A stretch of DNA of 64,000 bases from Heterodontus francisci (Eukaryota), in the NCBI RefSeq assembly GCF_036365525.1, contig NW_027140807.1, forward strand, positions 62,001-126,000, given 5' to 3'. A program made the position numbers and the translations under genes. The notes below the pieces were generated by a model, which saw nothing but the letters and a program-made list of their open reading frames with translations, had not been told where the DNA came from and did not search any database. This document shows, piece after piece, positions 2,196 to 31,289 of the stretch. Position 1 is the first letter of the stretch, and every line of letters starts with the position of its first letter.

Positions 2196-2234
2196 GCTTT
2201 TTGTTGAACTGCTCCATCTCTCTGAGTCACTGTG
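2196..2234 (-). other. 23-spacer RSS of V1
   Basis: CACAGTG-23 bp-ACAAAAAGC. Confidence 0.93.
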
Positions 2235-2711
2235 ATGACTCCAGGCACAGACATACACTGCCGAGTGATTCTCCCGCAGGCTGGAGGACTCGAGGTGGAA
2301 CTCGGAGTTACTCGGTCTCTCGGCGGTGAAACCCTCCACCGTCCCCTCTGAGTTCACGCTTTGTACACTTCGGGAGTAAAACATCAGCTGCGGCTTCTTC
2401 CCCGGGTATTGTCTGTACCAAAACATGTCAGGGTTACTTGTGCCCTGCACGGTGCATTTCAGCTTCACCTGCTCACCAGAAAATTTGGAGACAGCGGCGG
2501 GAGTCTGGTGGATAGTCTGTGAGTTCACATCTAGGAAAGAGACAGGGAGAGGAGGAGATCAATAAATAGCGACATTCAGTCCAGTGGGGAGAAAGAGGAG
2601 AGAGAGAGAAAATCAAAGAAAAATAAAATGAAAGAAATGTTAAGGAGAATTATTGTTTCAATAAAATGCCTTACGGTGAAACAGGGTGATCAGAGTCAGT
2701 AACAGATACAT
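2235..2711 (-). CDS. TRBV: TCR beta V segment V1 (TRBV30-like CAWS family), apparently functional; leader 2711-2675, V exon 2530-2235
   Basis: Leader MYLLLTLITLFH followed by GTAAG. AG acceptor, phase 1. V exon VNSQTIHQTP..LKCTVQGTSNPDMFWYRQ..AVYVCAWSH has both Cys and the Trp, and is followed by a 23-RSS. Confidence 0.9.
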
Positions 2712-2779
2712 TTTTTACTTTAAGCTGACCTCTGAATCAGCAAAGGGGAGAGAGAGATGGAGTGATGAGTGTTGTCAAT

Positions 2780-2856
2780 AGCCAACCCACTCTTTACAAA
2801 TCATTGGGACGAACAGGAAGAGCATTAGGAAGTGATGCACAGATGGTGACGCCCAG
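2780..2856 (-). promoter_or_regulatory. Conserved V promoter block (copies upstream of V2-V5)
   Basis: ccactctttacaaatcattggga..gaagagcattaggaagtgat recurs ~70-140 bp upstream of the ATG of V1-V5. It includes a GGAAGTG (ETS-like) core and a TGACG half-CRE in V1 and V4. Confidence 0.5.
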
Positions 2857-3399
2857 GTAAACATGTCAGAGTGGAGTAGGTTGTCAATGTCTCTCTCTCT
2901 ATCTCAATCCGCCTTCCTCTCTCTTTCTTACTCTTTGTTCCTCACTCTCTCTCTCTCTGCATGTATCGAGCTTTATGTCTCCCACTCTTTCAATCTCTTT
3001 CTCTCTATATCTGTGTGTGTGTGTGTATTTTTCTCTCTCTGTCTCCCTCTGTCCCGTTCATTTACGTTGAGTTTTTCCTCTCTATGACTCCCTGATTCAC
3101 CCTCTCTGCCTCTGTGTTTCATGGGCTGATGTATTGAGAAATAGAGGGCACTTATTGAAGGTAATTGGCAAAAGATCCAAAGGTGAACTGAGAAAACGTT
3201 TTGATGCAGTGAGTGGTGAGGATCTGGAATGCACTACGTGAGAGTGCGGGGGACGCAGATTCAATCGTGGCTTTCAAAAGGAAATTTGATAATTATCTGA
3301 AGGGAAAATGTGCAGTGTTACGTCGAAAGGGCAGGAGGAGTGCGACTAGCTGCAGAGACCAAATACAGCGACAGGGTGACAGCATTGTGGAACACCCTG

Positions 3400-3910
3400 C
3401 ATTCGGGCTGCAAGTGTGACCCTGAGGTCCCGGTTAGTGGACACTTTTAATTCTCATTCCCACTCCCACCCTGACCTCTCTGTCCTCGAAATCCTTCTCT
3501 GCTCCAATGAAGCTCAACAGAAACTCGAAGAACAGCACCTAATCTTTCAATTGGACACTTGACAGCTTTCTGAACTCAACAGTGAGTTTAACAATTTCTG
3601 ATCATAACCACTGCTCCGGTTTATTTGGACAGAGGTTTGTTGGTAATAATTGTGTTTCTGCTATTTCCACCTCCTCTAGACCCATCTTTTGTTCTTTACT
3701 TGACCAATTAACATCCCCTTTGTCTTGCACCAGCCTCAGTTTTGTTATTAAATCTCTCCTGCATTCCTCCCATTCTCCCTCTCCCTGGCTTTGTGCTGCT
3801 TAAAAGTTGATAGACCTCTAAATCCTTCCAGTTCTGCTGAATGATCTAGGACCTGATATGTTAATTTTTCCTCCTCCACAGAGGCTGTCTGACCTGATTA
3901 GTATTTCCAT
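3400..3910 (+). mobile_element. Degenerate Penelope-like retroelement 3' fragment (paralog at 9445-9960)
   Basis: Paralog translates to DLSFLDLLVCSNEAQQKLEEQHIIFQLDTLQ..LNCEF, resembling a PLE GIY-YIG C-terminus. Confidence 0.6.
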
Positions 3911-4121
3911 CCTTATTTATTTGTAAACCAGAAACGCAATGAGCACCAATATAGTGACAGAGCACCCAGAACCTAAACCATCCAGCACCTGCGGTTCCTT
4001 GTGTTCAGTTCACCAGTCTGTAACCGGGATGTATTTCTATAATTATCAGGAGAGGTTCATAGAGAAGTTTCAAAGTCCCTGTTGAAACATCATCAATAAT
4101 CTGATCCTTTTCACGGTCCGA

Positions 4122-4140
4122 CAGCGCCCTCTGCTGTCCC
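4122..4140 (-). promoter_or_regulatory. CTCF-like motif 3' of the V2 RSS (paralogs at 1300, 6047, 7150, 7920, 10172, 12664)
   Basis: Minus strand GGGACAGCAGAGGGCGCTG versus CTCF core CCASYAGRKGGCRC. Confidence 0.55.
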
Positions 4141-4518
4141 TTTGGAGAAAGACAACACTGTCAGTGAATAAAACACAACAGTGTCTGTCTGCCTACCAGC
4201 TATCTATCGACCAATCTACCTACCTATCTGATCTTCACTTCACACATTAAACCCTTTCATAATCTTTCTAAGAACTCTGAATTTTCACCCTTCAGTCTTC
4301 TCCTCTCTGGAGCAAAGATGTTCAAACTATCTTTGTTCTGATATCATTCCTGGAAAGTCCATTTCACACTTCCCCTGTGCTTCTGTATCTAACCTCTCAC
4401 CTTCTGTTTAAATCCGCCCTGTCTTCTTGTGAAAAACACTTTTCCAATGCCAAAAACACCAAACAGGACGCAGCACCGCCTGGTTTTATCTGAAACAGGT
4501 GTTTCCTGCTGCCTTTGG

Positions 4519-4551
4519 CGCTTTTGTTGAACTGCTCCATCTCTCACTGTG
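4519..4551 (-). other. Defective RSS of V2 (17-bp spacer)
   Basis: CACAGTG-17 bp-ACAAAAGCG; 6 bp deleted relative to paralogs. Confidence 0.88.
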
Positions 4552-5014
4552 AAGACTCCAGGCACAGAAATACACAGCCGAGTGATTCTCCCGCAGGCTG
4601 GAGGACTCCAGTTTGAACTCGTACTTATTCAGTTTCTCTGCGGTAAAACCGTCCACCGTCCCCTCTGGATCCACATAGTTAGCAGTACTGGAGTAAAACA
4701 TCAACAGCGGCTCCTCCCCGGGTATTGTCTGTACCAGTACATGGAGATGCTACCAGTACATGGAGATGCTACTTCACAGTGCACATCAGTCCCACTCCTT
4801 TCGCGGGAAATCTGGAGACAGTGGCGGGAATCTGGTGGATGGTCTGTGAGTTCACGTCTGGGAGAGAGATGGAGAGAGGAGGTGATCAGTAAACAGGGAA
4901 TTTCTGGGAATGAAAGGAAGACAGGGAGAGGAGAGGAAAGTTATTAACGATAATCTTTGTATTTCACACTCACTTACAATGAAACAGGATTATCAGACAC
5001 AGTAACTGATACAT
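4552..5014 (-). pseudogene. TRBV: TRBV pseudogene V2 (CAWS family); leader 5014-4978, V exon 4857-4552
   Basis: Leader MYQLLCLIILFH. TAG after CTVK, associated with a 19-bp tandem duplication (taccagtacatggagatgc x2 at ~4732-4769). 1-bp deletion in FR2. RSS spacer is only 17 bp. Confidence 0.88.
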
Positions 5015-6343
5015 CTTTCACTACAACATGTTCTCTTAATGGACACAGGAGTGAAAGCCGGAGCCGAGAGTCTTGTGAGGGTCCAAATAGACTCTTTACA
5101 AATCATGGGGAGGAACATGAAGAGCATTAGGAAGTGATACAATGTTGGAGACGCCCATTCACCCAGTTCAACAAATCAGAATTNNNNNNNNNNNNNNNNN
5201 NNNNNNNNNNNNNNNNNNNNNNNNNNNNNNNNNNNNNNNNNNNNNNNNNNNNNNNNNNNNNNNNNNNNNNNNNNNNNNNNNNNNNNNNNNNNNNNNNNNN
5301 NNNNNNNNNNNNNNNNNNNNNNNNNNNNNNNNNNNNNNNNNNNNNNNNNNNNNNNNNNNNNNNNNNNNNNNNNNNNNNNNNNNNNNNNNNNNNNNNNNNN
5401 NNNNNNNNNNNNNNNNNNNNNNNNNNNNNNNNNNNNNNNNNNNNNNNNNNNNNNNNNNNNNNNNNNNNNNNNNNNNNNNNNNNNNNNNNNNNNNNNNNNN
5501 NNNNNNNNNNNNNNNNNNNNNNNNNNNNNNNNNNNNNNNNNNNNNNNNNNNNNNNNNNNNNNNNNNNNNNNNCTCTTGCTCTCTCTCTTTCTGTCTCGCT
5601 CTCTCCTCATGTGTCTGGGGTTATGTCTCCCACTCTCTCCTTCTCTCTGACTCTCCCTCTCTCTCACTCTTACTGTCTCATTAGTTCTTTCTCTGTCTCT
5701 CTCTAGCTCTGCCTCCCTATCTGTCTCAGGCTCTTTATCTCAGTCTCTCTTTCTCTCCTTCTCTCTCAGTCCCTTTCTCTCTCACTCTCATTATGTCTCT
5801 CTTGCTGCCTCGCTGTCTTTGTCTCTATCTCTGTCTCCCTCTCTGTCTCAGTCTCTTCAATTCTATCTGTCGTTTTTCCTCTCTCTCACTAGATCTCTCT
5901 GTCACACACACACACACTCTTACTCTCTCTAACAAAATGGTGTCCTTGTCCTGTTCATGTGTATCAAGCTGGATCTGCATGATCTCCTGCTCTTTCAGTG
6001 TTCTCACTAAATCCTTCTCAAAGCCATTGTCAGTTCCATGGGCCTGGATCCACCTCTGCTGTCCCTGTGGAGAAGGTAAACACTGTGTCAGTGCATAAAA
6101 ACCCAGATTATTGTCATTGATTCCTGATAATTACATTCTGAGATCTCGTGACACCTTTATTAATCGCAGTACCTGTAAATCTAGTGTGTCACTACAATCA
6201 TCGCTCAACACTTTTTATTGTAATACTTTCACTCTGCATAAGGGAACAGGAGGTCGAGGCACCGAACGGTTTTACCCTCCACAGGTGTTTCCTGCTGCCT
6301 TTGGGGTTATTGTTGAACTGCTCCACCTTTCTGAGTTACTGTG

Positions 6344-6804
6344 AAGACTCAAGGCACAGAAATACACGGCCGAGTGATTCTCCTACAGGCTGGAGGACTC
6401 CAGTTTGAACTCGGAGTCAGTCGGTCTCTCGGCGGTGAAACCATCCAGTGTCCCCTCTGAGTTCACCCTTTGTACAGTTAGGGAGTAAAACATCAGCTGC
6501 GGCTCCTTCCCCGGGTATTGTCTGTACCAGTACATGTAAGGGTTACTGGTGCCATCCACGGTGCATTTCAGCTTCACCTGCTTCTCAGAAAATTTGGAGA
6601 CAACGGCGGGAGTTGGTGGACAGTCTGTGAGTTCACAGCTGGGAAAGAGACAGGGAGAGGAGGAGATCAGTAAACAGGGAATTTCAGTAAAGTGGGAGAG
6701 AGAAAGAAGTAAAAACAAAACCTAAAGAAATGTTAAGTAGAATTATTGTTTCAATAAAATCCCTTACGGTGAAACAGGGTGATCAGAGCCAGTAACAGAT
6801 ATAT
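6344..6804 (-). pseudogene. TRBV: TRBV pseudogene V3 (CAWS family); leader 6804-6768, V exon 6638-6344
   Basis: Start codon ATG changed to ATA. 1-bp deletion in FR1. In-frame TAG in FR3 (6383-6385). Ends CALSL. RSS CACAGTA-23-ACAATAACC at 6305-6343. Confidence 0.88.
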
Positions 6805-8238
6805 CTTTTACTTTAAGCTGCCCTCTGAATCACCAAAGGGGAGAGAGGAGGAGTGATGAATGTTGTCAATAACCAACCCACTCTTTCGAAATCATTGGGA
6901 GGAACAGGGAGAGCATTAGTAAGTGATGCAGAGATGGTGACGTTCATTTCCCACATCAACAAATGAGAATCGAGTTGTAAATGTCCCAATTTCTCTCTCA
7001 GTCTCTCTCTCTTTCTTTCTCTCTCTCTCTAAGGAGGTGATTGTCCTTCTCCTGGTCATGTATATCAACCTGGAGGACTGTATGATCTCCCACTGTTTGA
7101 TTTATCCTATGAACTCCTTCTCAAAGCCATTGTACATCACATGGTCCGCGAGCGTCCTCAGCTGTCCCCATAGTGAAAATATACACAGTGTCAGTCTATA
7201 ACAGCCCCAGTCCTTTTATTGTTATTCTTTCCTGACAGTTACTTTCCTGAGATCACGGGATATTCTTATTCAATGAGCTGGAAGATGAATGGACACGGAT
7301 ACATAGCAGTGCATGTGTGTGCGTGTGTTTTTCACTCGCTCTGTCTTTAGATCACTGTCCCGCTCTGTTTTACTGCTCTCTGTCTTTCTGTCCCTGTCTC
7401 TTTCTTTGTGTGTTTGAGTGCATGTGTGTATGTGTGTGTCTGTTTCCCAATCTGTTTCAGTCTCTTCCTCTGTGTTTTTTTTGTTTTCTCTCTGGTTCTT
7501 TCTTGGCCCCCCTCTCGGTCCTCCTCCCTCTCCTCTCTCTCCTCCTCTCAGTCTCCGTCTCTCTGTCTCACTCTCTTTGTCTCACTCTCTCTCTCTCAAT
7601 CTTTCTCTCTCAGTCTCTCTGTCTCTGTCAGTTTTCCTCTCAATCTCGTTCTCACCCTCTCTCACACGCTCAGTCTCTCTCTCTCTCTCAGTCCCTTTGT
7701 CTCTGTCAGTTTTCCTCTCAATCTTGTTCTCACCCTCTCTCACACACTCTGTCTCCCTCTCTGTGTCTCTCACATTGTGTGTGTGTGTGCGTATCCCTCT
7801 TTAAGGTGATGAATGTCCTTCTCCTGTCACTGTGTATGAAGCTCGAGGGCTGCATGACCTCTGCCTCTTTCTGTTTTCCGATTCAATGTTTTCTCGTCCA
7901 TTGTGTATTAATGGTCCTGGAGCGCCCTCTGTTAACCCTATAGAGGAAGAAAACGCAGTGTCAGTGCAGAAGAACTCAAGTCGTTTTATTGTTAATCTTT
8001 CCTGATAGTTACAACCTCAGATCTGGTGTTATCCTTGTTAATCATTCAGAGAGAGATCGAAACTTTTACCGCACAGATGAGGTCCGTTCATTGTCTCTTC
8101 GTCAGTGCCCGTCCATCTATTATCACACTTTTATTCTCACTTGTCTTCTTATCGTCACAAAAACAATCGCCCTGCACAAAAAACAAGTGGCAGCACCGAG
8201 CACCTTTATCCTCCACAGGTGTTTCCTGCTGCCTTTGG

Positions 8239-8277
8239 GGTTTTTGTTGAACTGCTCCATCTCTCTGAGTCACTGTG
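8239..8277 (-). other. 23-spacer RSS of V4
   Basis: Perfect consensus CACAGTG-23-ACAAAAACC. Confidence 0.95.
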
Positions 8278-8751
8278 AAGACTCCAGGCACAGAAGTACA
8301 CGGCCGAGTGATTCTCCCGCAGGTTGGAGGACTCCAGGTTGAACTCGGAGTTACTTGGTCTCTCGGCGGTAAAACCATCCACCTCTTCTGGAGATACGAG
8401 ATTGGCACCCGTGGAGTAAAACATAAACTGCGGCTCCTTCCCCGGGTATTGTCTGTACCAGTACATGTAAGGGTCACTGGTACCTTCCACGGTGCATTTC
8501 AGCTTCACCTGCTCCCCAGGAAATTTGGAGACAGCGGCGGGAGTCTGGTGGATAGTCTGTGAGTTCACATCTGGGAAAGAGACAGGGAGAGGAGGAGATC
8601 AGTAAACAGTAACATTCAGTCCAGTGGGGAGAAAGAGGAGAGAGAGAGAAAATCAAAGAAAAATAAAACGAAAGAAATGTTAAGTAGAATTATTGTTTCA
8701 ATAAAATTCCTTACGGTGAAACAGGGTGATCAGAGTCAGTAACAGATACAT
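8278..8751 (-). CDS. TRBV: TCR beta V segment V4 (CAWS family), apparently functional; leader 8751-8715, V exon 8570-8278
   Basis: Leader MYLLLTLITLFH. V exon SQTIHQTP..CTVEGTSDPYMYWYRQ..AVYFCAWSL. Consensus RSS. Confidence 0.92.
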
Positions 8752-10171
8752 CTTTTACTTTAAGCTGACTTCTGAATCTGCAAAGGGGAGAGAGCAGGAG
8801 TGATGAGTGTTGTTAATAACCAACCCACTCTTTACAAATCATTGGGAGGAACAGGAAGAGCATTAGGAAGTGATGCACAGATGGTGACGCCCAGGTAAAC
8901 AAGTCAGAGTGGAGTTGGTTGCCAATGTCTCTCTCTCTATCTATCTCAATCCGCCTTCCTCTCTCTTTCTTGCTCTTTGTTCCTCACTCTCTCTCTCTCT
9001 CTGCATGTATCGAGCTTTATGTCTCCCACTCTTTCAATCTCTTTCTCAGTGTATCTGTGTGTGTGTGTGTGTGTATTTTTCTCTCTCTGTCTCCCTCTGT
9101 CCCGTTCATTTATGTTGAGTTTTTCCTCTCTATGTCTCCCTGATTCACCCTCTCTGTCTCTGTGTTTCATGAGCGGATGTATTGAGAACCAAAGGGCACT
9201 TATTGAAGGTAATTGGGAAAAGATCCAAAGGTGAACTGAGAAAATGTTTTGACGCAGTGAGTGGTGAGGATCTGGAATGCACTACCTGAGAGTGCAGGGG
9301 AGGCAGATTCAATCGTGGCTTTCAAAAGGAAATTTGGATAATTATCTGAAGGGAAAATGCGCAGTGTTACGTAGAAAGGGCAGGGGAGTGGGACTAGCTG
9401 CAGAGACCAAATACAGCAACAGGGTGACAGCATTGTGGAACATCCTGCATTCAGGCTGCAAGTGTGACCCTGAGATTCCGGTTAGTGGACACTTTTAATT
9501 CTCATTCCCACTCCCACCATGACCTCTCTTTCCTCGACCTCCTAGTCTGCTCCAATGAAGCTCAACAGAAACTCGAAGAACAGCACATCATCTTTCAATT
9601 GGACACTTTACAGCTTTCTGAACTCAACTGCGAGTTTAACCATTTCTGATCATAACCAATGCTCCGGTTTATTTGGACAGAGTCTTGTTGGTAATGATTG
9701 TGTTTCTGCCAGTTCTGCCTCTTCTAGACCCATCTTTTGTTCTTTACTTGACCCATTAACTTCCCCTTTGTCTTGCACCAGCCTCAGTTTTGTTATTCAA
9801 TCTCTTTTGCATTTCTCCCATTGCCCGTCTCTCTGACTTTGTGCTGCTTAAAAGTTAATAGATCTCTAAATCCTTCCAGTTCAGTTGAAAGATCTACGAC
9901 CTGATATGCTAATGTTTTTCTCCCTCGACAGAGGCTGTTTGATCTGATTAACATTTCCATCCTTATTTATTTATAACCCAGAAATGCAACGAGCACCAAT
10001 ATAGTGACAGAGCACCCAGAACCGAAACCATCCAGCATCTGCGGTACCTTGTGTTCAGTTCACCAGTCTGTAATAGGAATGTAGTTATTTAATTATCAGG
10101 AGCGGTTCATAGACAAGTTTCAAAGTCCCTATTGAAACATCATCAATAATCTGATACTTATCACGGTCCTA

Positions 10172-10190
10172 CACCGCCCTCTGCTGTCCC
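10172..10190 (-). promoter_or_regulatory. CTCF-like motif 3' of the V5 RSS
   Basis: Minus strand GGGACAGCAGAGGGCGGTG. Confidence 0.5.
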
Positions 10191-11336: not shown

Positions 11337-11375
11337 GGTTTTTGTTGAACTGCTCCATCTCTCTGAGTCACTGTG
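11337..11375 (-). other. 23-spacer RSS of V5
   Basis: CACAGTG-23-ACAAAAACC. Confidence 0.95.
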
Positions 11376-11828
11376 AAGACTCCAGGCACAGAAATACACG
11401 GCCGAGTGATTCTCCCGCAGGCTGGAGGACTCCAGGTTGAACTGGGAGTCAGTTGGTCTCTCGGCGGTGAAACCGCCCACCATCCCCTCTGGATCCACAT
11501 AGTTAGCAGTAGTGGAGTAAAACATCAACAGCGGCTCCTTCCCCGGGTATTGTCTGTACCAGTACATTCTAGCAGTACTGGTGCCCTCCACTGTGCACCT
11601 CAGTTCCACTGCCTCTCCACGCAATCTGGAGACAGCGGCGGGAGTCTGGTGGATAGTCTGTGAGTTCACATCTGGGAGAGAGATGGAGAGAAGAGCAGAT
11701 CAGTAAACAGGAAACTTCTGGGAATGAAAGGGAGACAGAGAGAAGAGAGGAAAGTTATTAACGATAGTTTTTGCATTTCACACTCACTTACAATGAAACA
11801 GGATTATCAGACCCAGTAACTGATACAT
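11376..11828 (-). CDS. TRBV: TCR beta V segment V5 (CAWS family), apparently functional; leader 11828-11792, V exon 11671-11376
   Basis: Leader MYQLLGLIILFH. V exon SQTIHQTP..CTVEGTSTARMYWYRQ..AVYFCAWSL. Consensus RSS. Confidence 0.92.
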
Positions 11829-12936: not shown

Positions 12937-13061
12937 TGTTTTTGTTGAACTGCTCCATCTCTCTGAGTCACTGTGATCTCTCCAGGCACAGAAATACACG
13001 GCCGAGTGATTCTCCCGCAGGCTGGAGGTCTCCAGTTTGAAGTCGTATTTATTTAGTCTTT
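12937..13061 (-). pseudogene. TRBV: 5'-truncated TRBV remnant (FR3 only) with intact 23-RSS
   Basis: RLNKYDFKLETSSLRENHSAVYFCAWRD, then CACAGTG-23-ACAAAAACA (12937-12975). The upstream part is replaced by CR1 sequence. Confidence 0.88.
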
Positions 13062-16050: not shown

Positions 16051-16421
16051 GGAAACCAGAACTGTACACAGGGCTCCAAATGCGCACTAGGTAAGGTATT
16101 TGGATGTAAGAACTGTCCCCAGCACTTCAGATGTCGTCTACACAGGCATCTCGAGCTGAGAATTGTGCACAGTGCTCCAGGTGTGGTGTAACCGAGGTAC
16201 GTGTTGAAGAGCCGTTCTGTGAACCATTATTCAGGTGTGGGCACAGAGTGTGGGGAGCCAGAACATGGGCGTTCTGCCACTCGAACGGGCTCTGAACAGA
16301 TGCAGATCTGCATCCGATCAGCCAGGGCTGCTCTTCACCGAATGCTGGGTTAAATGCACCCGTTAGAAGGGAGACGTGTGAGGGTTTTTGTCAAGGCAGC
16401 CAATGACTCTGAACCGCTGTG

Positions 16422-17155
16422 TCCCATCACCAGCTGCACAGAAATACACCGCCTCGTCCGTGGCGTTCACACTCTCGATCGTCAGAGTGGATTTCTTATT
16501 GTTCAGAGTCCTGGTAATAACAAACCCGCTCTTAAAACCATCTTCATACTGAGGTTCACTGCCGAGGTAAACAGAGCCCATTGAGAGGAATCCTCTGCTG
16601 GGGGACTGACGATACCAGTACATGTAGTTGCGAACTGTTCCTTTCTGCAGACAGTTCATTTCCACGGGTCCTGGTTGTTTAACAGCCAGTGACTGAGGCC
16701 ATTGATGTATCACATCACCCCGGCAAACACCTAGAAAGAGAAATTAGAGGGAATGAACTAGTATCGATGGAGTTACAATTGAGACGATGGGCGTCGGTGT
16801 TGCACCGAATTAACGACGGAAATTCAGTCTGTGTCCTAATTTCCTGCAAGCACCTGGATCTTTACAACTGTAAAATAGAATCGTGGAATCCACAAGTTTG
16901 CAAGTGGGTGCAAACATTAAAGAGTTAACATCATATTAATAACACTTGTCTTCCCAAACTAGGGGGCAGATGAATGAGTTCACTGTCTGATATGAAATAA
17001 TCGATTACTGATTTCACAAGTCACCGCCGCTCAGTTTTATTGAGATTATTAATCATCCCTTTCAGTTAAACAAATGTAGAAGAGTGATTGGGACAGAATT
17101 TTAACCTACTCAGCGCCAGAAGGGAAATAGCAAAGACGATGAAACTGAAAGACAT
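16422..17155 (-). CDS. TRBV: TCR beta V segment V6 (second family), apparently functional; leader 17155-17110, V exon 16730-16422
   Basis: Leader MSFSFIVFAISLLAL followed by GTAGG. V exon VCRGDVIHQWP..MNCLQKGTVRNYMYWYRQ..DEAVYFCAAGDG. RSS CACAGCG-23-ACAAAAACC at 16383-16421. Confidence 0.88.
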
Positions 17156-18295: not shown

Positions 18296-18299
18296 GAGC

Positions 18300-19910: not shown

Positions 19911-20530
19911 GAGTGATAGAGTGTGTGTGAAAGTGCCAAGGAATGAGTGAGAGACATAGTGCGAGACAGAGTCAGAGAGGATGATATGGTGAAAAACAGA
20001 TAGAGTAAAAGAGAGGCAGTGATAGAGATAGATGGAGAAAGGGAGAAAAATATCTCTGTCTGTTTATCTATATCGCTATCTATCTATCTCTGTAGCTATC
20101 TGTCTAACTTTCTCTCTATTTATCCATCTGCATGGCTGTGTGTCTGTCTGTCTATCTGTGTCAATTTGTCTCTCTATCTGTATGAATCCGTCTGCCTGTC
20201 TTCATATCTACCTATCTCATTTCCCGGCGGAGCAGCAGGAGAAGGTAGCGACTCTTCGGTGGGTAAGTGAAGGCACCAGGAGCTGTGTTTTGAAAGTTGT
20301 ACTTACTGTTTTCCTTGTGTTCAAGTTACTTTTGGCGCGGGAGGAACCGGAAGCTGGACGGCAGCAAGGACTCCTGGGTAGGTATTTTCTTTAAAGGTGC
20401 GGAGCAGAGTTAACCCGAGACCCTTTTTACCCTCCTCCTCTAGCCAAAAAGGACTGAACAGGTAAGCTATTTCACTGTTTTTGTTAATATCTATATTTGT
20501 ACTTAATTAAGGGGTAATTGAGTAAAAGAA

Positions 20531-21451
20531 ATGGCAGCCAGGGGAGTGCAGTGCTCCTCCTGCAGTATGTTCGAGGTGAGGGGAACCTCCGGTGACCCTG
20601 CCGACTTCACCTGCTGGAAGTGCATCCGTCTCCAGCTCCTATCAGACCGTGTTAGGGAACTGGAGCTGGAGCTGGATGAACTGAGGATCATTCGGGAAGC
20701 TGAGGGGGTGATAGATAGAAGCTACAGCGATGTCGTTACTCCACAAAACAAAGGCAGCTGGGTAACAGTTAGAGGTGGGAAGAGGTCAGTGCAGGGATCT
20801 CCTGTGGTCGTTCCCCTCAGCAACAAGTATACAGTTTTAGATACTGTTGGGGGGGACGGCCTATCGGGGGCAGGCTGCAGTGAACGGGCCTCTGGCACGG
20901 GGTCCTGCACTGTGGCTCAGAAGGGAAGGAGGGAGAATGGGAGAGCACTAGTCATCGGGGACTCGATGGTGAGGAGTACCGACAGGCGGTTCTGTGGGCG
21001 CGAGCGAGACGCACGGATGGTTTGTTGCCTACCTGGTGCCAGGGTCCGTGATGTTTGTGATCGCGTCTTCAGGATCCTTAAAGGGGAGGGGGAGCAGCCA
21101 GAGGTCGTGGTGCACATTGGCACCAACGACGTAGGAAGGAAGGGTGGCACAGATGTTAGAAGTGAGTTTAGGGAGTTAGGCTGGAAGCTGAAAGCTCGGA
21201 CGGACAGAGTTGTTATCTCTGGTTTGTTGCCGGCGCCACGTGATAGTGAGGCTAGGAATAGGGAGAGAGCACAGCTGAACACGTGGCTGCAGGAATGGTG
21301 TAGGAGAGAGGGCTTCCAGTTCTTGGATAATTGGACTGCATTCTGGGGAAGATGGGACCTGTTCAAACAGGACGGGCTGCATCTGAACCAGAGGGGCACC
21401 AATATCCTGGGAGGGAGGTTTGCTAGTACTGTTCGGGAGGGTTTAAACTAG
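20531..21451 (+). CDS. CR1 ORF1p: CxxC..CxxC zinc finger, coiled coil, SGNH esterase domain
   Basis: CSSC/CWKC; GDS, GTND and DGLH motifs; intact 306 aa. Confidence 0.9.
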
Positions 21452-24342
21452 TTTGGGAGGGGGATGGGAACCGGACTTGTAGTCCAGGGACCAGTGGGTC
21501 CACTCAGAAAGACAAAGAGTGTAGTGAGGTATTGGGGAAGGTAGCACTGTTGCAGAGGACAGATGGGCACGGAGAAGGGTTAAAGTGCGTATACTTCAAC
21601 GCAAGAAGCATCAGGAATAAGGTGAGTGAATTGAAGGCGTGGATGGGCACTTGGGACTACGATGTTGTGGCCATCACTGAAACGTGGATAGGTGAGGGGG
21701 AGGAATGGTTCTTGGAGGTACCTGGTTATAGATGTTTTCATAAGATTAGGAATGGTGGTAAAAGAGGTGGGGGGGTGGCATTGTTAGTTAGAAATAGTGT
21801 AACAACTGCTGAAAGAATTTTCGAGGAGGATCTGCCGACTGAGGCACTGTGGGTTGAGGTCAGGAACAGGAAAGGAGCAGTCACCTTGATGGGAGTTTTC
21901 TATCGGCCCCCCAATAGCAGCAGGGAGGTGGAAGAGCAGATTGGGAAACAGATTTTGGAAAGGAGCAGAAGTCACAGGGTAGTAATTATGGGGGATTTCA
22001 ACTTCCCAAATATTGATTGGCAACTCTTTAGATCGAATAGTTTGGATGGGGTAGTGTTTGTGCAGTATGTCCAGGAAGCTTTTCTGACTCAGTATGTAGA
22101 CTGCCCGACCAGAGGGGAGGCAATATTGGATTTGGTACTAGGTAATGAACCAGGGCAAGTGATAGAGCTGTTGGTGGGCGAGCACTTTGGAGATAGTGAT
22201 CACAATTCTGTAGCATTCACTGTGGTAATGGAGAGGGATAGGTATGTGCAACAGGGCAAGGTTTACAATTGGGGGAAGGGTAGATATGATGCTGTCAGGC
22301 AGGAACTGAGGAGCATAAGTTGGGAGCATATGCTGGCAGGGAAGGGCACGGTCGAAATGTGGAACTTTTTCAAGGAGCAGATAGTAGGGGCCATTGATAA
22401 GCATGTCCCTGTCAGACAGGGAAGGGATGGTCATGTGAGGGAACCGTGGTTGACAAGAGAGGTTGAGAGTCTTGTTAGGAAGAAGAAGGATGCGTATATA
22501 AGGTTGAGGAAAAAGGGCACAGGCATAGCTCTGGAGGGATACAAGATGGCCAGGAAGGATCTGAAGAAAGGGATTAGGAGAGCTAAGAGAGGGCATGAAA
22601 AATGCTTGGCGGGTAGGATAAAAGAAAACCCCAAGGCCTTTTACGCGTATGTCAGAAATATGAGGATGACTTGGGGGACCGTAGGTCCGGTCAAGGACAA
22701 TAGCGGGAGACTGTGTGTTGAGCCGGAAGAGATAAGTGAGGTTTTGAATGAGTACTTCTCTTCGGTATTTACGAATGAGAAGGGGTGTATTACTGAAGAG
22801 GACGGTGTGAAACAGACTGGTAAGCTCGAGGAAGTGCTCGTTAGGAGGGAAGATGTGTTGGGGTTTTTGAATAACTTGAAGATAGACAAGTCTCCCGGGC
22901 CTGACGGGGTATATCCAAGGATGTTATGGGAAGCAAGGGATGAAATTGCAGAGCCGCTGGCAATGATCTTTTCATCTTCTCTGTTGACGGGGGTGGTACC
23001 AGGTGATTGGAGGGTGGCAAATGTTGTGCCCCTGTTCAAGAAAGGGAATAGGAACAACCCTGGGAATTACAGGCCAGTTAGTCTTACTTCGGTGGTAGGC
23101 AAGTTGATGGAAAAGGTGCTGAGGGATAGGATTTCTGAGCATCTGGAAAGACACTGCTTGATTCGGGACAGTCAGCACGGTTTTGTGAGGGGTAGGTCTT
23201 GCCTCACAAGCCTGATTGAATTCTTTGAGCAGGTGACCAAGCAAGTGGATGAGGGTAAACCAGTGGATGTGGTGTACATGGATTTTAGTAAGGCATTTGA
23301 TAAGGTCCCCCATGGTAGACTTATGGAGAAAGTCAGGAGGCATGGGATAGTGGGGAATGTGGCCAGTTGGATTAAGAATTGGCTAACTGATAGAAGGCAG
23401 AGAGTGGTCTTAGATGGTAAATACTCAGCCTGGAGCCCAGTTACCAGTGGCGTGCCACAGGGATCAGTTCTGGGTCCTCTCCTGTTTGTGATTTTTATTA
23501 ACGACTTGGATGAGGAAGTCGAAGGGTGGGTCAGTAAATTTGCAGATGATACAAAGGTTGGTGGAGTTGTGGATACCGAGGAGGGCTATTGTCGTCTGCA
23601 AAGGGACTTGGATAGGTTGCAGTGATGGGCTGAAAAGTGGCAGATGGAGTTTAACCCTGAAAAGTGTGAGGTCGTCCATTTTGGAAGGACAAACACGAAT
23701 GCAAAATACTGGGTTAACGGTAGGGTTCTTGGGCATGTGGAGGAGCAGAGAGACCTTGGGGTCTATGTGCATAGATCGTTGAAAGTTGCAACTCAAGTGG
23801 ATAGGGCTGTGAAGAAGGCATATGGGGTGTTAGCGTTCATTAGCAGAGGGATTGAATTTAAGAGCCGTGAGGTGATGATGCAGCTGTACAGGACCTTGGT
23901 AAGGCCTCATTTGGAGTACTGTGTGCCGTTCTGGTCGCCTCATTTTAGGAAGGATGTGGAAGCCTTGGAGAGGGTGCAGAGGAGATTTACCAGGATGTTG
24001 CCTGGAATGGAGAATAAGTCTTACGAGGAAAGGCTGAACATTCTAGGCCTCTTCTCATTAGAACGGAGAAGGATGAGGGGTGACATGATAGAGGTTTATA
24101 AGATGATCAGGGGAATAGATAGGGTAGACAGTCAGAAACTTTTTCCCCGGGTGGAGCAAAGCGTTACAAGGGGTCATAAATTTAAGGTGAAGGGTGGGAG
24201 ATATAAGGGGGATGTCAGGGGAAGGTTCTTTACCCAGAGAGTGGTCGGGGCATGGAATGCCTTGCCTGGGGAAGTTGTTGAGTCAGAAACTTTAGGGACT
24301 TTCAAACGGCTTTTAGATAGGTATATGGATAAAGGAGAATGA
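21451..24342 (+). pseudogene. CR1 ORF2 (APE endonuclease + reverse transcriptase) with one premature TGA at 23623-23625
   Basis: NARS, ITETW, GDFN, SDH (APE); [14 protein letters not shown] (RT); the same frame continues past the stop. Confidence 0.92.
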
Positions 24343-24464
24343 TGGGGTATAGATTAAATTGTCCTTGACAGAGGACAAAGGATCGGCACAACATCGTGGG
24401 CCGAAGGGCCTGTTCTGTGCTGTATTTTTTCTATGTTCTATGTTCTATGTTCTATGTTCTATCT

Positions 24465-24596
24465 TTTGTCTGTCTGTCTTCATATCTACCTATCTGCATA
24501 TCTGTCTGTCTGTCTAACAATCTATTTGACTATTTGTCTACCTATCTGTCTGTCTATCTATCAATCTGTCTACACATCTGTCTTTCTATCTATCTG

Positions 24597-24652
<56 letters not shown>

Positions 24653-24700
24653 ATGTCTGCCTGTCTGCCTTCCTAGCTATCTATCTGCCTGTCTATGCTG
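24465..24700. repeat. (TCTA)n/(TCTG)n microsatellite hosting the CR1 insertion (other half at 20050-20217)
   Basis: Direct inspection. Confidence 0.85.
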
Positions 24701-24994
24701 CCTATGACATGGTGCTGTACACCAGTTGGCTTCCGTGTTTTAAGTACACTGCTCTCTGAAATGACCTAGCAAACCCTTCAGTTACCTACAAGGCAACACA
24801 CACCTTCTCCAGGGCAATGAGTGATGTTGAATAACTACTGGCCTTCTCAGAGGGACCCAGGTCCCCAGAATGAATAAAAAAAAATCAAAGCAAGGGAAGA
24901 AGTAGCAGAGGATCTGACTATCATTTTCCAGTTCTTAATTGGCTGTTAACTGTTTTGGGGCGTCTGTGAAGTCCTGGAAGACCTTTTATAATTT

Positions 24995-25515
24995 TTTTTT
25001 CTTATTCGTTCATGGGACGTGAATTTCTTTCGCAAGACCAGCAATTGTTGGCCCTTGAGAAGGTGGTGATGAGCTGACCTCTTGAAACACTGCAGTCCAT
25101 GTGGGGTAGGTGCACCCACAGTGCTGTTGGAAGGGAGTTCCATGATTTTGACCCAGTGACAGTGAAGAAACGGCGATATAGTTCCAAGTCAGGATGGTGT
25201 GTTGCTTGGAGGGGAACTTGCAAGTGGTGGTGTTCCCATGAGTCTACTGCCCTTGTCCTTCTGGTGGTAGAGTTGGTGGGTTTGGAAGGTGCTGTCTAAG
25301 GACACTCGATGCTTTGCTGCAGTGCATCTTGGAGACGGTACACACTGCTGCCACTGTGGTAAAGGGAGTGAGTGTTGAAGGTGGTAGATGGGGTACTGAA
25401 CAACCGGGCTGCTATGTCCTGGATCGTGTTGAGCTTCCTGAGTGTTGTTGGAGCTGCATCATCCAGGCAAGTGGAGAGTATTCCATCACACTCCTGACTT
25501 GTGCCTTGTAGATGA
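24995..25515 (-). mobile_element. LINE 3' fragment (related fragment on + strand at 29975-30150)
   Basis: FTVTGSKSWNSLP..FKRSAHHHLL-type LINE C-terminus. Confidence 0.6.
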
Positions 25516-25559
25516 TTGATACTCTATCTATCACTTCACAATGGTGATGTTAACAATCT

Positions 25560-25700
25560 GTCTTATTTAGATCATTAATTAACCTTTTAATTAATCAAGT
25601 ATAGGACAGAGACTGTGACTCAGTTTTAACATACTCAGTGCCAGAAATTAAACGGTGTAGACGAGGACTTTGAAATTTTGCAGGGGATCTGAGACACATC
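25560..25700 (-). pseudogene. Degenerate third copy of the V6-type leader/intron junction
   Basis: ttttaacatactcagtgccagaa...ggatctgagaca resembles 17098-17175. Confidence 0.45.
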
Positions 25701-25917
25701 TCTCTCTTTCCTTCTCTCTCTCTTCCTCTGACCTTTTGCTAGTCCCTGTCATTCAGCCCTTGATGAAGGTTCAGGAATCCAGGAATCACCAGCTTGGAAA
25801 ACGGCCGGTGAGGCAAGGAGAGACATTAACCATTGTCACTGCTCCTGCATGTCTGTCAGTTGTGTTGTTCACCCTGTTGGTTTTTGCACTGGCACTAAGG
25901 CAGTCTGCAGCGCTGTG

Positions 25918-26733
25918 CTCCCTGGCTGCACAGTAATACACCGCCGCATCCGCAGCCTTAACCTTGAGGACACTCAGGCTGCATCGTCTCTCCTCGGGCC
26001 TCAAAATCTTCACCTCCTCCTCAAATCTTCCTTCGTAAATGGGTGAGCTTCCAGTGTAAGAATAGCCCATTAGGGTAAGCCCCTGCCCGGCATACTGCCG
26101 ATACCACAGCATAATGCTCTTTCTACTGTCATTCCGGGAACAGTTTAATTCTGCTGGTTCACTTCCATTCACCACCACCAGAGTTGGCCACTGGTGTATC
26201 ACCTCTGCTCGAGTTTTGCCTTGAGAAATAAGGAGAATAGTTAAAAATGTTTAGAACATATTGTGACATATGATAACCAACGAGAACTATCCAAACAGAT
26301 AAGTAGATAATACTGGATAACTATATAGGCAGACAATATATAGTTAAATGATATATTTGTAGATATATAGATAATAAACAGATAGATATAGAGATTGAAA
26401 AATAATGTAGCAAGTGATATGAGACAGACAAATTAACCCAGAATTAGGGCAAACTTATCGGTTAAAGATAGCTGTAGTAGCGTCACGAATATATAAGTTA
26501 CTTTCATTCAGTCAATAATTTCATTAAGTAAATATTATTTACAGTGAAAGTAAAGTATGTAGTTTAAGAAATGACAGAAAATCGACTGCAATGATGTTGT
26601 ATCAATCTAGTTTGATAGAAGTTAGTAGTGAATGAAAACACAGCATGTATTTTAGCAGAGGTATCTTTATGAAGGATGAATACCTACATGGAAGAAGAGA
26701 GCAGACGATTAGGAAGAGTTTGACTAACTGCAT
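25918..26733 (-). CDS. TRBV: TCR beta V segment V7 (third family), apparently functional; leader 26733-26688, V exon 26219-25918
   Basis: Leader MQLVKLFLIVCSLLP. V exon KTRAEVIHQWP..LNCSRNDSRKSIMLWYRQ..DAAVYYCAARE. RSS CACAGCG-23-GCAAAAACC at 25879-25917. Confidence 0.88.
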
Positions 26734-27914
26734 CCTGCAGACTGGGGGCTGAAACTGTTCATGAACCAATATCAGGCGGCTGAAGATAAAGCAGAGAGCG
26801 GAAATGACAGCACTGGAAGCAGGGTTTCCTTCTGACCCCTCACTTCTGGTATGACAGAATAATAACACCCCCTGGTCGAAAGGAGCTTGAATAAGGAACT
26901 GCTTCCCGTCTGTATCTGGCTCCCGTTGCTTGTGTCTGATTGGTATTGCATTGGGGAGCTCTTTTCCCTGTGCTAAACGACAATTCAAGGGTTATGTTTT
27001 ACATTGGGGTGAAATCTTAGATACTTTGAAAAGCGACAGTGTCATGAAGAAGTGGGTTAACTGTTTTGAACAGATGCTCAAACCGCCGCCAGGAGGCAGG
27101 TGTTCCAGTGAGAGACCTCTCTGGGGAGGTGTCTCACTTTTGCATTGTATGAATCATCGTGGACATGTACAATAGGGAGCTATGTGTAACTCTTGTCACA
27201 TACCACAGACAGCTCATTCAACAGGACCATGAACCCATTTACCCCACCTCGGAATCTGTTCTTTACAGGTAGAGGCTGCCTGAACGAGAAGGATCTGAGC
27301 ACATTGCTGCAGCATTTTTAATAATTCATAATGTATTGATGTACTCTGAGTCGAAGGAGAGCAAGAAGGTGAAACTATCAGTAAAATACAAATCATGATG
27401 CATCAATAATTAAACTGGTATGGTGTAAATAATGGTGTTAGATAGATGATAAACGTCAGATGTATGGTGGATGCATATTTAGAGAGGTGAGAGACGGAGA
27501 GATAAATCGATGACAAATATATATATAATCAAGGTAAATAGATAGATAAATAGTGCAAATAACCNNNNNNNNNNNNNNNNNNNNNNNNNNNNNNNNNNNN
27601 NNNNNNNNNNNNNNNNNNNNNNNNNNNNNNNNNNNNNNNNNNNNNNNNNNNNNNNNNNNNNNNNNNNNNNNNNNNNNNNNNNNNNNNNNNNNNNNNNNNN
27701 NNNNNNNNNNNNNNNNNNNNNNNNNNNNNNNNNNNNNNNNNNNNNNNNNNNNNNNNNNNNNNNNNNNNNNNNNNNNNNNNNNNNNNACAGAAACCTGCAG
27801 ATAGTCAGAGAGACAGAAAGACACTGAGATAGACAGACGGGTTCATCTCCCACAAGTGCTTTCCTCCCCCTTTAGAGTTTTTGCTGAAATCTGGCACCTT
27901 TCTGAGTCACTGTG

Positions 27915-28834
27915 CAGACTCCAGGCACAGTAATACACGGCTGATTGATTCACCCACAGGCTGGTGGACTCCAGGGAAAAATGGGTGTTGCTGGGTCTCC
28001 TGGCGGTGAAACCGCCAACCTCTCTGGAGGGAATGACTGTTCCGGCAGAGGTGGAATAGAAAAGGTTCTCGGGCTCACGGTCCGGATGCCACGGGTACCA
28101 GTGGATATCGGAGCCAGCATCTGCCTTTGTGTAAATACACTGGATACTGACTGGAGAGCCTGGGGAATAGGATATGGAAGCGGGAATCTGTTGCATCAAC
28201 ACGGCCCCCACATCTGTAAAACAGAGAGAGAGAGAGAGAGAGATAAACCCAGGGACAATGTTTAAATTGACATCGGCCACGAAGAGGGGAGAGGCACGAT
28301 GGGCTGAATGACCTACTGTGTGTTCTAAATGTCCCGTGTTCCTATGTAAGAAGGGAGAGGTGGGAGACGGGGAGCTGCAAAGAGAGAGAGAGACATAGAG
28401 TGAAAAAGAGTGAGAGAAAAGGAGAGAAGCAGAGAGAGAGAGAGAGAGAGGGAAGCACAGACAGAGGGAGAAAAACAGCAACATTCTAGACATCGGCAAC
28501 AGACATGAAGGAGCTAAGAGGACAGGGAGAGAGAGTAAGAGAGACAGAGAGACAGGGAGACTGGGAGGGACAGACATAGAGGAACATTTATTGTTAGACA
28601 GAGAGAAAGAGAGATAGAGAAAGGGATACAAAAAGAGAAAGAGAGCAGCTAAATTAACAATCACAGTGACGGTGCCTTGTAAGGGGGTAAACCCCCAATG
28701 GGGTCACACAGGGAAAGAGCAGTGAAGATGACTGACATCTCCCAGTCGAGGTCCACCTTACCCCTTAACACCAGCAACACAACGCAGAGGTGAGACACAG
28801 TCATCTCTGGAGGGAGACAGATCCATGTGTTCAT
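27915..28834 (-). CDS. TRBV: TCR beta V segment V8 (divergent CAWS member), open reading frame; leader 28834 (or 28804)-28762, V exon 28213-27915
   Basis: Leader (MNTWICLPPE)MTVSHLCVVLLVLR followed by GTAAG. V exon DVGAVLMQQIP..IQCIYTKADAGSDIHWYPW..AVYYCAWSL. RSS CACAGTG-23-GCAAAAACT at 27876-27914. Confidence 0.85.
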
Positions 28835-30159
28835 TGTGTGAAATCACTGAGCTGGTTTATTGCAGAAAATCTCAATGTTCTGAGTGACATTTACTGTCTC
28901 CTCCTCCCCACTGTTTCATGTTCCCATTGGGGGGAGGGAGGGGGTGCAAATTCCTGATGGTTCATTGGCTCCCACATGTTGACATGTTGACAGGTCATTT
29001 CATGGGCTGAGCTAAGGAGGCCTCAGGCGAATCCGGGGTGCTCTGGTCACTATTAAAGACCAAACATGATGAAGTCCAACTGCGTTTATTTTTTTGTGTG
29101 TCTGTGAAATAGTTGAGAAGTGAAACATTTCAGAAGCAGCCAAGTTGACCTCTGGAGCTGCTGTGGGTAAAGCTCACTCTGTCTGAGCATGTTCTGGGCA
29201 GCGGCTACAGTGGAGTAACACTGGCACCTAGTGGCTCCAGGTGCAACTGCAAGCACTGATTCTGCAGGCGTTTCATTGTCAGATACTGAACCTGTTTCAG
29301 TCATTAGTTATATTCTCCTACTCGACTCGTGTTGGCGCTTGTGGCACAGAACTAGATGGAAGTTAATGCAAAGATCCGCGCCATTCGGCCCGAAAGTTCT
29401 CTGCTTCACTCAAGCCTCAACCAGTCAAATACATTTTGACGTGCAGTCACTGTTGTCATGTCGGGAAGGAGGCAGACAAGCTGCAAGATCAAGTGCAGGG
29501 TTATTCAGAAAGAACAGGGAGTGGGAGCAATTGGACAGGGAAGATGAAAATAAGGGATCATAAATGTAAGGTAGTCCTTAATAAATCCAATTGGGAATTC
29601 AGGAGGAGGTTCTTTAACCCAGGGAGCGGTGAGAATGTGGAATTACAGACCAAATGGAATGGGTTGAGGTCGAATAGAGACGATGCAGTTAAGGGGGGAG
29701 CTGAATAAATACATGAGTGAGAAAGGAATAGAAGAATCTGTTGATAGGGTAAGACGAAGAAAGATGGGAGGAAGTCGCTCTTTCGAGCTGCCAGGCCAGG
29801 ATCGATGGGCTGAACGGCCTGGATTTGACCTGCATGATTCTATGACCCAATGCGACCCGTCAACCTGCTGCCTTGTTTCGGGGCCAAGACAGTTTTATTT
29901 CACCCCCTTCTGCTAAACGGGAGTTATAGCGTTAAGTTCTTCACCGCACTGAAGTCCAGTCATTGTGAAAATTCTTCACTGTCACTGGGTCAAAATCCTG
30001 AAACTCTCTTCCTAACAGCACTGTGGGTCAACCTACCCCACATGACTGCAGCGGTTCAAGAAGGCAGCTCAGCACCACCTTCTCAATTAGACGATTAGGG
30101 ATGGACAATAAATGCTGGCCACAACCAAAATCTCATGAATGAATTAAAAAAGAGAAAAT

Positions 30160-30500
30160 AACCTCAGCAGGGGGGAAAAAACTCCAAAAAATACAACAAC
30201 ATGCAAAAACCAAATTGAACAACAACTGAAGCAGGGAAGGAAACAAGTACAACAAAAACGTCAGCAGGGAAAACACCAACAAACACAACAACGACCTCAA
30301 AAGGAAAACAACGCCAACAAATTCAACAACAGATCAGCAGGAGATTCAAACACCAACAAATTCAACAACAGATCAGCAGAAGATTCAAACACTAACAAAT
30401 TCAACAACCTCAGTCGGAGAAAAGCACCAGCAAATACAACAACAAATACAACAACAACTTCAGCAGCAGATCTATACCAACAAATGCAACAGCAACTACT
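30160..30500 (+). repeat. CAA-rich ~35-bp minisatellite
   Basis: aaacaccaacaaattcaacaac..cagcagga units. Confidence 0.8.
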
Positions 30501-30659
30501 GGCAGCCAATGGTAGAGAGAGGGGCGTGGGTACCTCATCAGGGAGGAAGGTGTTGGACAAACCTGAATCACTTGCTTGAGTCTTCATGTGGCTTCTCACA
30601 AGACTCAAATCTCTTCTTTCCACTGATTTCCCAATTGCAGGATAAGCTTCCAGTGGAAG

Positions 30660-31152
30660 ATGTATCTGTTACTGAGTCTCATGGTCTTATTTCAAAGTAA
30701 GGGATCTTTCTCACCTCCACCCCACACCCCCATTGTTTGTGTTAACAGCTCTCTTTCTTATTTTCTTTCTCTCTATCTTTCTCTCCTTCCTTCATTCTTC
30801 ACATCCCAGATTGTCCCTGTTCACTGACCTTCTTCTCTCCCGGTCTCTTCCTTCAGGCGCGATCTCAGCGAGGGTCCGCCAGACTCCCACCGCCGTCTCC
30901 AGATTTCCTGGGGAGGGAGTGGGACTGGAGTGCCGTGTGGAGGGCGAGAGTAGCGGTTACATGTTCTGGTACAGACAGGACCTGGGGAAGGAGCTGCGGC
31001 TGATGTTTTACTCCGCAGTTACACCAAGTGTGAACTCAGAGGGGACGGTGGAGGGTTTGACTGCCAAACGACCGACTGGTTCCCAGTTCAACCTGGAGTC
31101 CTCCAGCCTGCAGGAGAATCGCTCGGCGCTGTATTTCTGTGCCTGGAGTCTG
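30660..31152 (+). CDS. TRBV: Inverted TCR beta V segment V9 (CAWS family), apparently functional; leader 30660-30696, V exon 30857-31152
   Basis: Leader MYLLLSLMVLFQ followed by GTAAG. V exon AISARVRQTP..LECRVEGESSGYMFWYRQ..ALYFCAWSL. Opposite strand to all other V segments. Confidence 0.9.
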
Positions 31153-31191
31153 CACAGTGACTCAGAGAGATGGAGCAGTTCAACAAAAACA
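31153..31191 (+). other. 23-spacer RSS of V9
   Basis: CACAGTG-23-ACAAAAACA; spacer identical to those of V1, V4 and V5. Confidence 0.93.
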
Positions 31192-31289
31192 CCAACAGAA
31201 ACACCTGTTTCAGATAAAAGCCTGCAGCTCTGTATCCTGTTGGGTTTATCTACTGCAGTGTGAACATGTCTTCGACATGAAGAAGACAC

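Follow-up and report, generated by a model that had tools for sequence, protein, structure and literature searches.

How old is the single V (variable) gene that lies backward behind the C (constant) region of the mammalian T-cell receptor (TCR) beta locus, and what has become of it in sharks? An inverted 3' TRBV has been described for human, mouse and opossum, where it is named TRBV28 (PMC2275272). The question is raised by 64,000 nucleotides from the horn shark Heterodontus francisci (contig NW_027140807.1, here C761, positions 62001-126000, of a 6.0-Gb genome, here G000; hereafter the window), in which eight of ten V segments end in CAW(S/R) or CALS. The original prediction, made from these letters alone, took them for a multi-copy TRBV30-like family in a shark TCR beta locus, descended from early jawed vertebrates and lying either in an expanded inverted 3' cluster or in the ancestral upstream position. 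Our data point toward a larger system: the window very probably belongs to the upstream V array in one of some 21 to 23 amplified TCR beta units, and its CAW segments belong to a TRBV30 clade that has expanded to hundreds of copies and likely supplies much of the beta repertoire.

The V segments of the window are numbered V1 to V10 in order of position. Closer inspection of the 62 kb adjoining the window, which were read as a whole, revealed further V segments on the minus strand, followed by a D (diversity) segment, D1 (C761:13524-13538), six J (joining) segments, a second D segment, D2 (4366-4380), and four more J segments up to the contig end. This D1-J-D2-J block occupies C761:1.2-13.5 kb, so that D1 lies 51 to 76 kb from V1-V9 (51 kb from V1). 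Nothing but V segments stands between V1-V9 and TRBD-TRBJ, and V1-V9 point into the D-J block on its own strand. Both D segments are flanked by a recombination signal sequence (RSS) with a 12-base spacer on the V side and by a 23-RSS on the J side, and the J segments carry the FGxG motif. The D segments carry the core GGGACAGGGG, and D2 bears the core conserved in TRBD as quoted in PMC11754216. D and J are thus present on the contig of the window, and C was found in sister units; one of these, also on C761, runs on to a C exon 40% identical to salamander TRBC and to a TRB-type transmembrane exon. We assign the locus of the window to TCR beta because TRBD and TRBJ sit 51 kb downstream of V1 on the same strand, and the predicted shark TCR beta locus is further borne out by the TRBC exon of the sister unit and, at the level of the family, by J-to-C splices. 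V1-V9 are conventional upstream V segments, and V10 is inverted yet also upstream. Since V1-V9 face D-J on the same strand, the window is an upstream array and not an inverted 3' cluster. None of its own genes lies inverted 3' of TRBC, and its CAW genes are co-orthologs of TRBV30, not its positional counterpart. In short, the locus is unusual, the kind of system is known, and the window is an ordinary upstream V array.

A scan for heptamer, spacer and nonamer detected exactly ten V ends in 2196..31191, nine on the minus strand (2234, 4551, 6343, 8277, 11375, 12975, 16421, 25917 and 27914) and one, that of V10, on the plus strand (31153). The RSS spacer measures 23 bases in nine of them and 17 bases in V2. 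Framework 3 ends in CAW in seven of the eight CAW-kind segments, the exception being V3 with CALS. Five of the eight are intact, with a leader exon, GT donor, AG acceptor, open frame, both cysteines, the tryptophan and a 23-RSS: V1 (2196..2711, minus; leader 2675-2711, V exon 2235-2530, 23-RSS 2196-2234), V4 (8239..8751, minus; leader 8715-8751, V exon 8278-8570, perfect 23-RSS 8239-8277), V5 (11337..11828, minus; leader 11792-11828, V exon 11376-11671, perfect 23-RSS), the divergent V9 (27876..28804, minus; leader 28762-28804, exon 27915-28213, 23-RSS) and V10 (30660..31191, plus and hence inverted relative to its neighbours; leader 30660-30696, exon 30857-31152, 23-RSS 31153-31191). Two further intact segments belong to other TRBV families, V7 with the end CAAG (16383..17155, minus; leader 17110-17155, exon 16422-16730, 23-RSS) and V8 with CAAR (25879..26733, minus; leader 26688-26733, exon 25918-26219, 23-RSS). 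All seven intact segments combine a V-set exon, a leader exon, two cysteines, the tryptophan and a 3' 23-RSS, as TRBV genes do, and all seven match Pfam V-set (E of 9e-17 to 9e-9). The remaining CAW-kind segments are the CAW pseudogene V2 (4519..4857, minus), with frameshifts, an in-frame stop and its RSS spacer shortened to 17; the CALS pseudogene V3 (6305..6638, minus), with a 1-base deletion, a TAG stop and a 23-RSS; and V6 (12937..13055, minus), a 3' fragment of about 80 bases ending in CAWR with a 23-RSS, in which unrelated DNA takes the place of the 5' part. The scan and the exon anatomy thus recover the ten V, eight CAW-kind and five intact segments that had been predicted, coordinates included. 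The description of the CAW segments as one family needs qualification: all fall into a single clade, but V9 shares only 68-74% of its nucleotides with V1-V5 and V10, lacks SQTIHQ and WYRQ, and is a separate subgroup, so that "one family" is true at clan level and not by the usual 75% rule. The 2.6-kb stretch from the 5' side of V9 through V10 occurs at full length at 11 places, the window copy included, with 96-100% identity.

The assignment to the horn shark agrees with a protein named for Heterodontus francisci (P0020), three segments of which match a neighbouring contig of this genome at 100, 100 and 98%. Relatives of V4 were found in bamboo sharks, rays, catshark, sturgeon, bichir, salamander and human. 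P0031 is a human TCR beta chain, and its V domain is the very sequence quoted in the original prediction; it is 81% identical to P0195, whose cluster includes a protein named TRBV30, and 43 of 93 residues are identical between V4 and its V domain. Furthermore, the best-scoring ordinary single-V chains in PDB were those of MEL5 beta, which is TRBV30 according to PMC5887915. For the trees, 258 fetched proteins and 33 genomic V segments were pooled, the collection having been made with a CAW profile; after removal of domains of <85 residues, of X-containing domains and of exact duplicates, 465 V domains were kept. A clade holding both V4 and P0031 comprised 75 of the 465 domains with a support of 0.976, or 0.936 without the three columns that follow the second cysteine. 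In a subset of 82 domains (38 of the 75 clade members, chosen after the first tree, and 44 others), IQ-TREE united the CAW segments with human TRBV30 at 98/94, with a bony-vertebrate subclade at 100/95; without the CAW motif columns and with one inverted V added, the values were 97/96 and 98/93. V9 forms its own subclade (100/100) inside the TRBV30 clade, and V7, V8 and the other shark V families fall outside it. The CAW segments also stand apart from the other TRBV, TRAV and immunoglobulin (Ig) V domains of the pool. Members of the clade come from sharks, rays, bichir, sturgeon, gar, teleosts, frogs, salamanders, a caecilian, turtles, a lizard and mammals, and include proteins named TRBV30 in donkey, wall lizard, bichir and reedfish, the last two names being automatic annotations. 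The trees therefore support the placement of the CAW segments in the clade of human TRBV30, in keeping with the predicted kinship. Several members from gar, sturgeon and teleosts (anchovy, electric eel and catfish), namely P0123, P0128, P0158, P0193, P0222 and P0185, lack the CAW motif, and some of these occur in tandem.

Exact CAW-plus-RSS (heptamer) ends numbered 417 in the genome, pseudogenes included (the first 100 places were listed), and none were found with the reversed control; because of this contrast, and because Pfam V-set is matched, the pattern is not a product of chance. The 150 best matches of V4 all lie on seven contigs with a total of 8.52 Mb, which are small unplaced pieces outside the large scaffolds. 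Six of the seven bear 21 TRBC first exons, all open and 98-100% identical, and 40 D segments, likewise on these contigs, were located in 23 D-J blocks. Each unit begins with a V array; D1 with about 5-6 J and D2 with about 10-14 J follow, then C, and 26-38 kb beyond it an inverted TRBV30-clade V opens a second array. Within three stretches read as a whole (456 kb), 38 of 59 V segments with a detectable RSS, those with a degenerate RSS being omitted, belong to the CAW clade (25 of them intact) and 21 to other families. The median difference among the 21 C regions, compared over 3.4 kb, is 2.2%, and they resolve into 20, 16 and 14 types at 0, 0.2 and 0.4% divergence; one contig holds six C, and two C stand head to head within a gap-free stretch of 200 kb that was read whole. 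Consistent with several copies, one DNA run contained three haplotype contigs near the start of the C exon at depths of 13.4, 24.7 and 27.1, for 4, 7 and 10 copies in the assembly; Logan contigs merge most variants and the depths are uncalibrated, so that they give no absolute copy number. The multi-unit layout is real, and the haploid number of units is somewhere between about 10 and 23. The original prediction was thus right about a multi-copy family and underestimated its scale: there are 417 ends rather than eight, and it is the whole V-D-J-C unit that is amplified. Six of the 23 D-J blocks showed one D by our search pattern (C761:940k and 1356k, C779:1097k and 1395k, C1317:288k, C2233:227k), and in three of these C follows only about 20-25 kb from the D1-type D, as if the block had been partly deleted.

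The inverted position that the window lacks is found elsewhere in the genome. When 205 CAW segments were placed (the complete set of 85 pattern matches on C407 together with 120 of the 150 best V4 matches), 134 were inverted and faced C from its 3' side, 61 faced D from upstream and 10 faced nothing on their contig. C407 was read whole, and the first V behind each of two C is the same intact CAW gene, inverted. The 1.5-kb flank of this gene occurs 24 times in the genome; 19 of the 24 V segments were fetched, and in all 19 the frame is open and the RSS perfect, and all 19 belong to the TRBV30 clade. An intact inverted TRBV30-clade V lies 26-38 kb behind 17 of 17 testable TRBC, the remaining four of the 21 C being 3-20 kb from a contig end; hence the inverted TRBV30-clade V behind C was present in the unit before it was amplified. 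Accordingly, of the two positions originally proposed, the upstream one holds for the window, and the inverted 3' one fails there and holds at these 17 C. The inverted V behind C is one ancestral event copied many times and not 17 independent cases. Its conservation argues for an old inverted position rather than for the upstream one as ancestral, and the TRBV30-like segment and its inverted position are both likely to be as old as jawed vertebrates.

Some further features were noted around the inverted genes. Between C and the inverted V array, each unit examined contains a tandem repeat of about 3 kb (C407:359-362.5 kb and 503.5-506 kb; C779:579-582 kb) with a unit of about 37 bases, as judged from self-match offsets. 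A lone J-like segment with an FGGG motif and a GT donor is located, inverted, at C407:507720-507860 (minus), 21 kb behind the C at 486 kb; it shares the strand of the nearby inverted V array, its nonamer is weak, and that strand has no C for 127 kb. At C779:590589-592368 (minus), the inverted first V and its flank occur with no C ahead on the contig, and the match to the unit extends only down to about 579 kb; either D-J-C was lost from a unit here, or the contig was joined at this point during assembly.

Sequencing runs provide evidence for use of the family. The leader intron of the V4 type is skipped at exactly the predicted GT-AG sites (8715/8570) in contigs of three of four runs (X5, X6 and X7); read contigs were placed on V4 at 85% likeness, and paralogs contribute to this signal. 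In X6, one loose contig end, read by hand, runs from a CAW V in frame into a J, its final 23 bases being the J at C407:395074. Loose ends of the C exon in X5 and X6 are J ends, as J-to-C splicing produces, and at two C-exon sites both variants are present, each at about half the depth. These runs show CAW V splicing, in-frame joining to TRBJ and J-to-TRBC splicing for the family, not for each gene of the window. Database TRB chains that join a CAW V to TRBC are also known from salamander (P0008) and, as a gene model, from bamboo shark (P0016).

Several observations weigh against our reading and have to be set beside the alternatives. As to synteny with EPHB6 and trypsinogens, neither Eph receptors (17 matches to Ephrin_lbd) nor trypsins (150 of 359 candidates scored) were found on the seven TRB contigs, MOXD2 not having been searched for, and 200 kb sampled at the array edges and beside the window yielded pieces of long interspersed nuclear elements (LINEs), V ends and J segments and no other gene. 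The C of the window's own unit is not on the contig, which stops inside the J cluster, and relative to the C at C761:533 kb V10 is 3' and inverted, albeit 440 kb off. One might thus suppose that the window is itself an inverted 3' cluster, or even a non-beta locus (alpha/delta, gamma or Ig light chain). Against such a placement, V1-V9 aim at TRBD-TRBJ on their own strand with nothing but V segments between, and the D core, the J set and the C of the sister units are all of beta type; we regard it as scarcely credible, the same-strand D-J ruling it out barring a contig misjoin between 14 and 64 kb. It is also quite improbable that the CAW motif is convergent and that the shark segments are not TRBV30 orthologs. 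The motif alone is not diagnostic, since P0045, a rattlesnake domain ending in CAWS, falls among alpha-like V domains outside the clade; pairwise identity to the human V is no higher for V9 (31/93) than for V8 (32/93), and the pool was gathered with a CAW profile. It contains few of the human and mouse TRBV families, and mouse Trbv31 itself was not identified in it. The trees rest on about 90 columns, their bootstraps are unsettled, and FastTree support fell to 0.748 when 19 near-copies were added. Yet the clade stands at 97/96 after removal of the three motif columns, takes in the motif-less members of gar, sturgeon and teleosts, and splits bony vertebrates from sharks and rays, as the species tree would. 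As regards expression, X5-X8 are taken for RNA by guess ("RNA?"), and no run containing the C stretch is recorded as RNA; all runs come from one sample, which may be the assembled animal, and the single V-D-J junction among the loose ends listed has a J that matches another unit.

A more serious challenge concerns the position, and here we see a possibility that we doubt without dismissing it: the kinship is real and the inverted 3' place is an accident of the horn shark, an upstream array having been flipped behind C once, before the amplification and independently of amniotes. The locus is rich in inversions, and arrays with the V9/V10 stretch occur upstream of D in the window and 3' of C on C407. 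Moreover, 61 of the 205 placed CAW segments take an upstream place on the same strand, an upstream CAW V would be implied for bamboo shark by the model P0016, which has CAW V, J and C in line, axolotl members of the clade are non-inverted in the excerpts of PMC11754216, and the 17 cases copy one event. On the other hand, the sole V kept directly behind C comes from the very clade whose amniote members stand inverted behind C, and this in an animal in which about a third of the V segments in the three whole-read stretches (21 of 59) are of other families; inverted clusters in newt and likewise oriented axolotl genes are described in PMC12698447. The number of units may be inflated as well, through assembly of both haplotypes or through false duplications, with a true haploid count closer to 10 than to 21, which we consider unlikely but worth reckoning with. 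The seven contigs are all small and lie outside the large scaffolds, the C regions include five groups whose members are 0-10 bases apart in 3.4 kb, the 21 C regions make only 14 types at 0.4%, and C1317:1-43k equals C779:704-747k at 99.9% identity over 43 kb. This pair was considered as a simple contig overlap and rejected, with 41 mismatches and divergence past 43 kb. Also against inflation, one contig carries six C that each differ by at least 10 bases, two of the near-identical C groups have three members, sister C regions vary in D number and neighbours, and three haplotype contigs in about the proportions of the assembly exclude a single-copy gene.

In our model of an upstream array in an amplified beta unit, RAG would join D to J and then the 23-RSS of a V to the 12-RSS of D, as expected from the RSS types and the established mechanism. 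By the rules of V(D)J recombination, deletion would bring V1, V4, V5 and V9 to the D-J block, 51-76 kb distant, and V10 and the 3' arrays would join by inversion, like TRBV30. The low divergence of the C regions and the mirrored flanks suggest a recent origin of the units through segmental duplication and inversion, perhaps accompanied by gene conversion, from an ancestor unit that would already have had its inverted 3' V. Going further, we tentatively propose, and with somewhat less than even conviction, that the TRBV30 lineage together with its inverted place dates to the last common ancestor of jawed vertebrates and that a complete V-D-J-C-inverted-V block was amplified about 20 times in the horn shark, giving a multi-megabase field in which most genes of the clade must rearrange by inversion and in which exclusion has to work across some 40 alleles. 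The single backward V, the best-conserved oddity of the TCR beta locus, would thereby be moved from amniotes and amphibians back to cartilaginous fish, and a gene that stands alone in mammals corresponds in a shark to the largest clade of V segments. Two questions have now become testable: by what means a T cell with 10-20 units per haploid genome is kept to one beta chain, and whether V segments that join by inversion are used as much as those that join by deletion.

A multicluster organization of TCR beta in the horn shark was reportedly described by Rast and Litman in 1994 in PNAS, with genomic blots, many V, J and C genes and several V families, and Hawke et al. are said to have treated the diversity of horn shark TCR beta cDNA in 1996 in J Immunol. 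Our data supply the sequence map for the older report, which is not known to include a map at the level of sequence, a count or an anatomy of the units, or any link to TRBV30. Each shark unit described here is a small translocon that combines many V with two D and 15-20 J, unlike a one-V cluster.

With human TRBV30, mouse Trbv31 and opossum TRBV28, the shark genes share the clade (in the trees), the CAW end, the 23-RSS and use in beta chains, and with the amniote 3'-inverted clade they share an inverted copy 3' of TRBC in every testable unit. In contrast, TRBV30 is single in most mammals, and the shark has at least 417 3' ends, 38 of 59 V segments in the stretches read whole, and both upstream and inverted arrays. 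The excerpts of PMC11754216 describe the inverted 3' TRBV clade across amniotes, with five copies in tuatara and some members in axolotl, and note inversions in salmonids and amphibians; its trees include three nurse shark TRBV, which the passages at hand do not place in the clade. The cited passages take the clade back as far as amphibians and the inversion perhaps to salmonids, without reaching cartilaginous fish. An inverted V after C in beta and delta is cited as an ancient feature in PMC12227049. Several D-J-C units, head-to-head pairs and inverted V clusters that rearrange by inversion are also seen in salmonids, with three or four TRB loci (PMC10464911), in newt, with multiple inverted V and six D-J-C units (PMC12698447), and in axolotl, with five D-J-C units (PMC12529555). 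However, these species have 3-6 units in the excerpts, whereas the horn shark has 21 C and 23 D-J blocks, and the amphibian units are D-J-C tandems with divergent C, whereas whole V-D-J-C-V blocks with C exons 98-100% identical are repeated in the horn shark. The Ig miniclusters of sharks (PMC12227049, PMC1845163) are similar in that many V-D-J-C cassettes share a genome and pose the same question of exclusion, but they hold one V, two D and one J, unlike the many V and 15-20 J of the TRB units; for TCR loci, the excerpts of both papers describe or assume translocons. Those of PMC5931798, PMC1845163, PMC3964593 and PMC13433984 contain nothing further on the layout of shark TRB, and in a literature coverage that is thin for subscription journals, key shark papers and supplements we found neither a published map of a shark TRB locus nor a link between shark V segments and TRBV30.

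Apart from the TRB contigs, arrays of 28 and about 45 near-identical C1-type exons occur at G000:C8:115.6-124.8 Mb and C46:15.0-16.9 Mb; no near-identical copy of TRB C was among the top TRBC-query matches on C8, and the arrays are probably clusters of Ig light chain or other Ig-superfamily genes. In the window itself, LINE-type open frames and fragments, whose endonuclease and reverse transcriptase content was judged by eye, lie on the plus strand at 20522-24340, 38593-41530 and 55665-57190, one copy separating V7 and V8. An AAC-rich repeat of 36-39 bases surrounds V10 on both strands (30310-34642), three tandem copies of 160 bases with 98% identity lie at 37957-38437, and a purine-rich (AG) satellite of 9.7 kb with a 66-base higher unit and a GC skew of >0.7 extends over 43917-53590.

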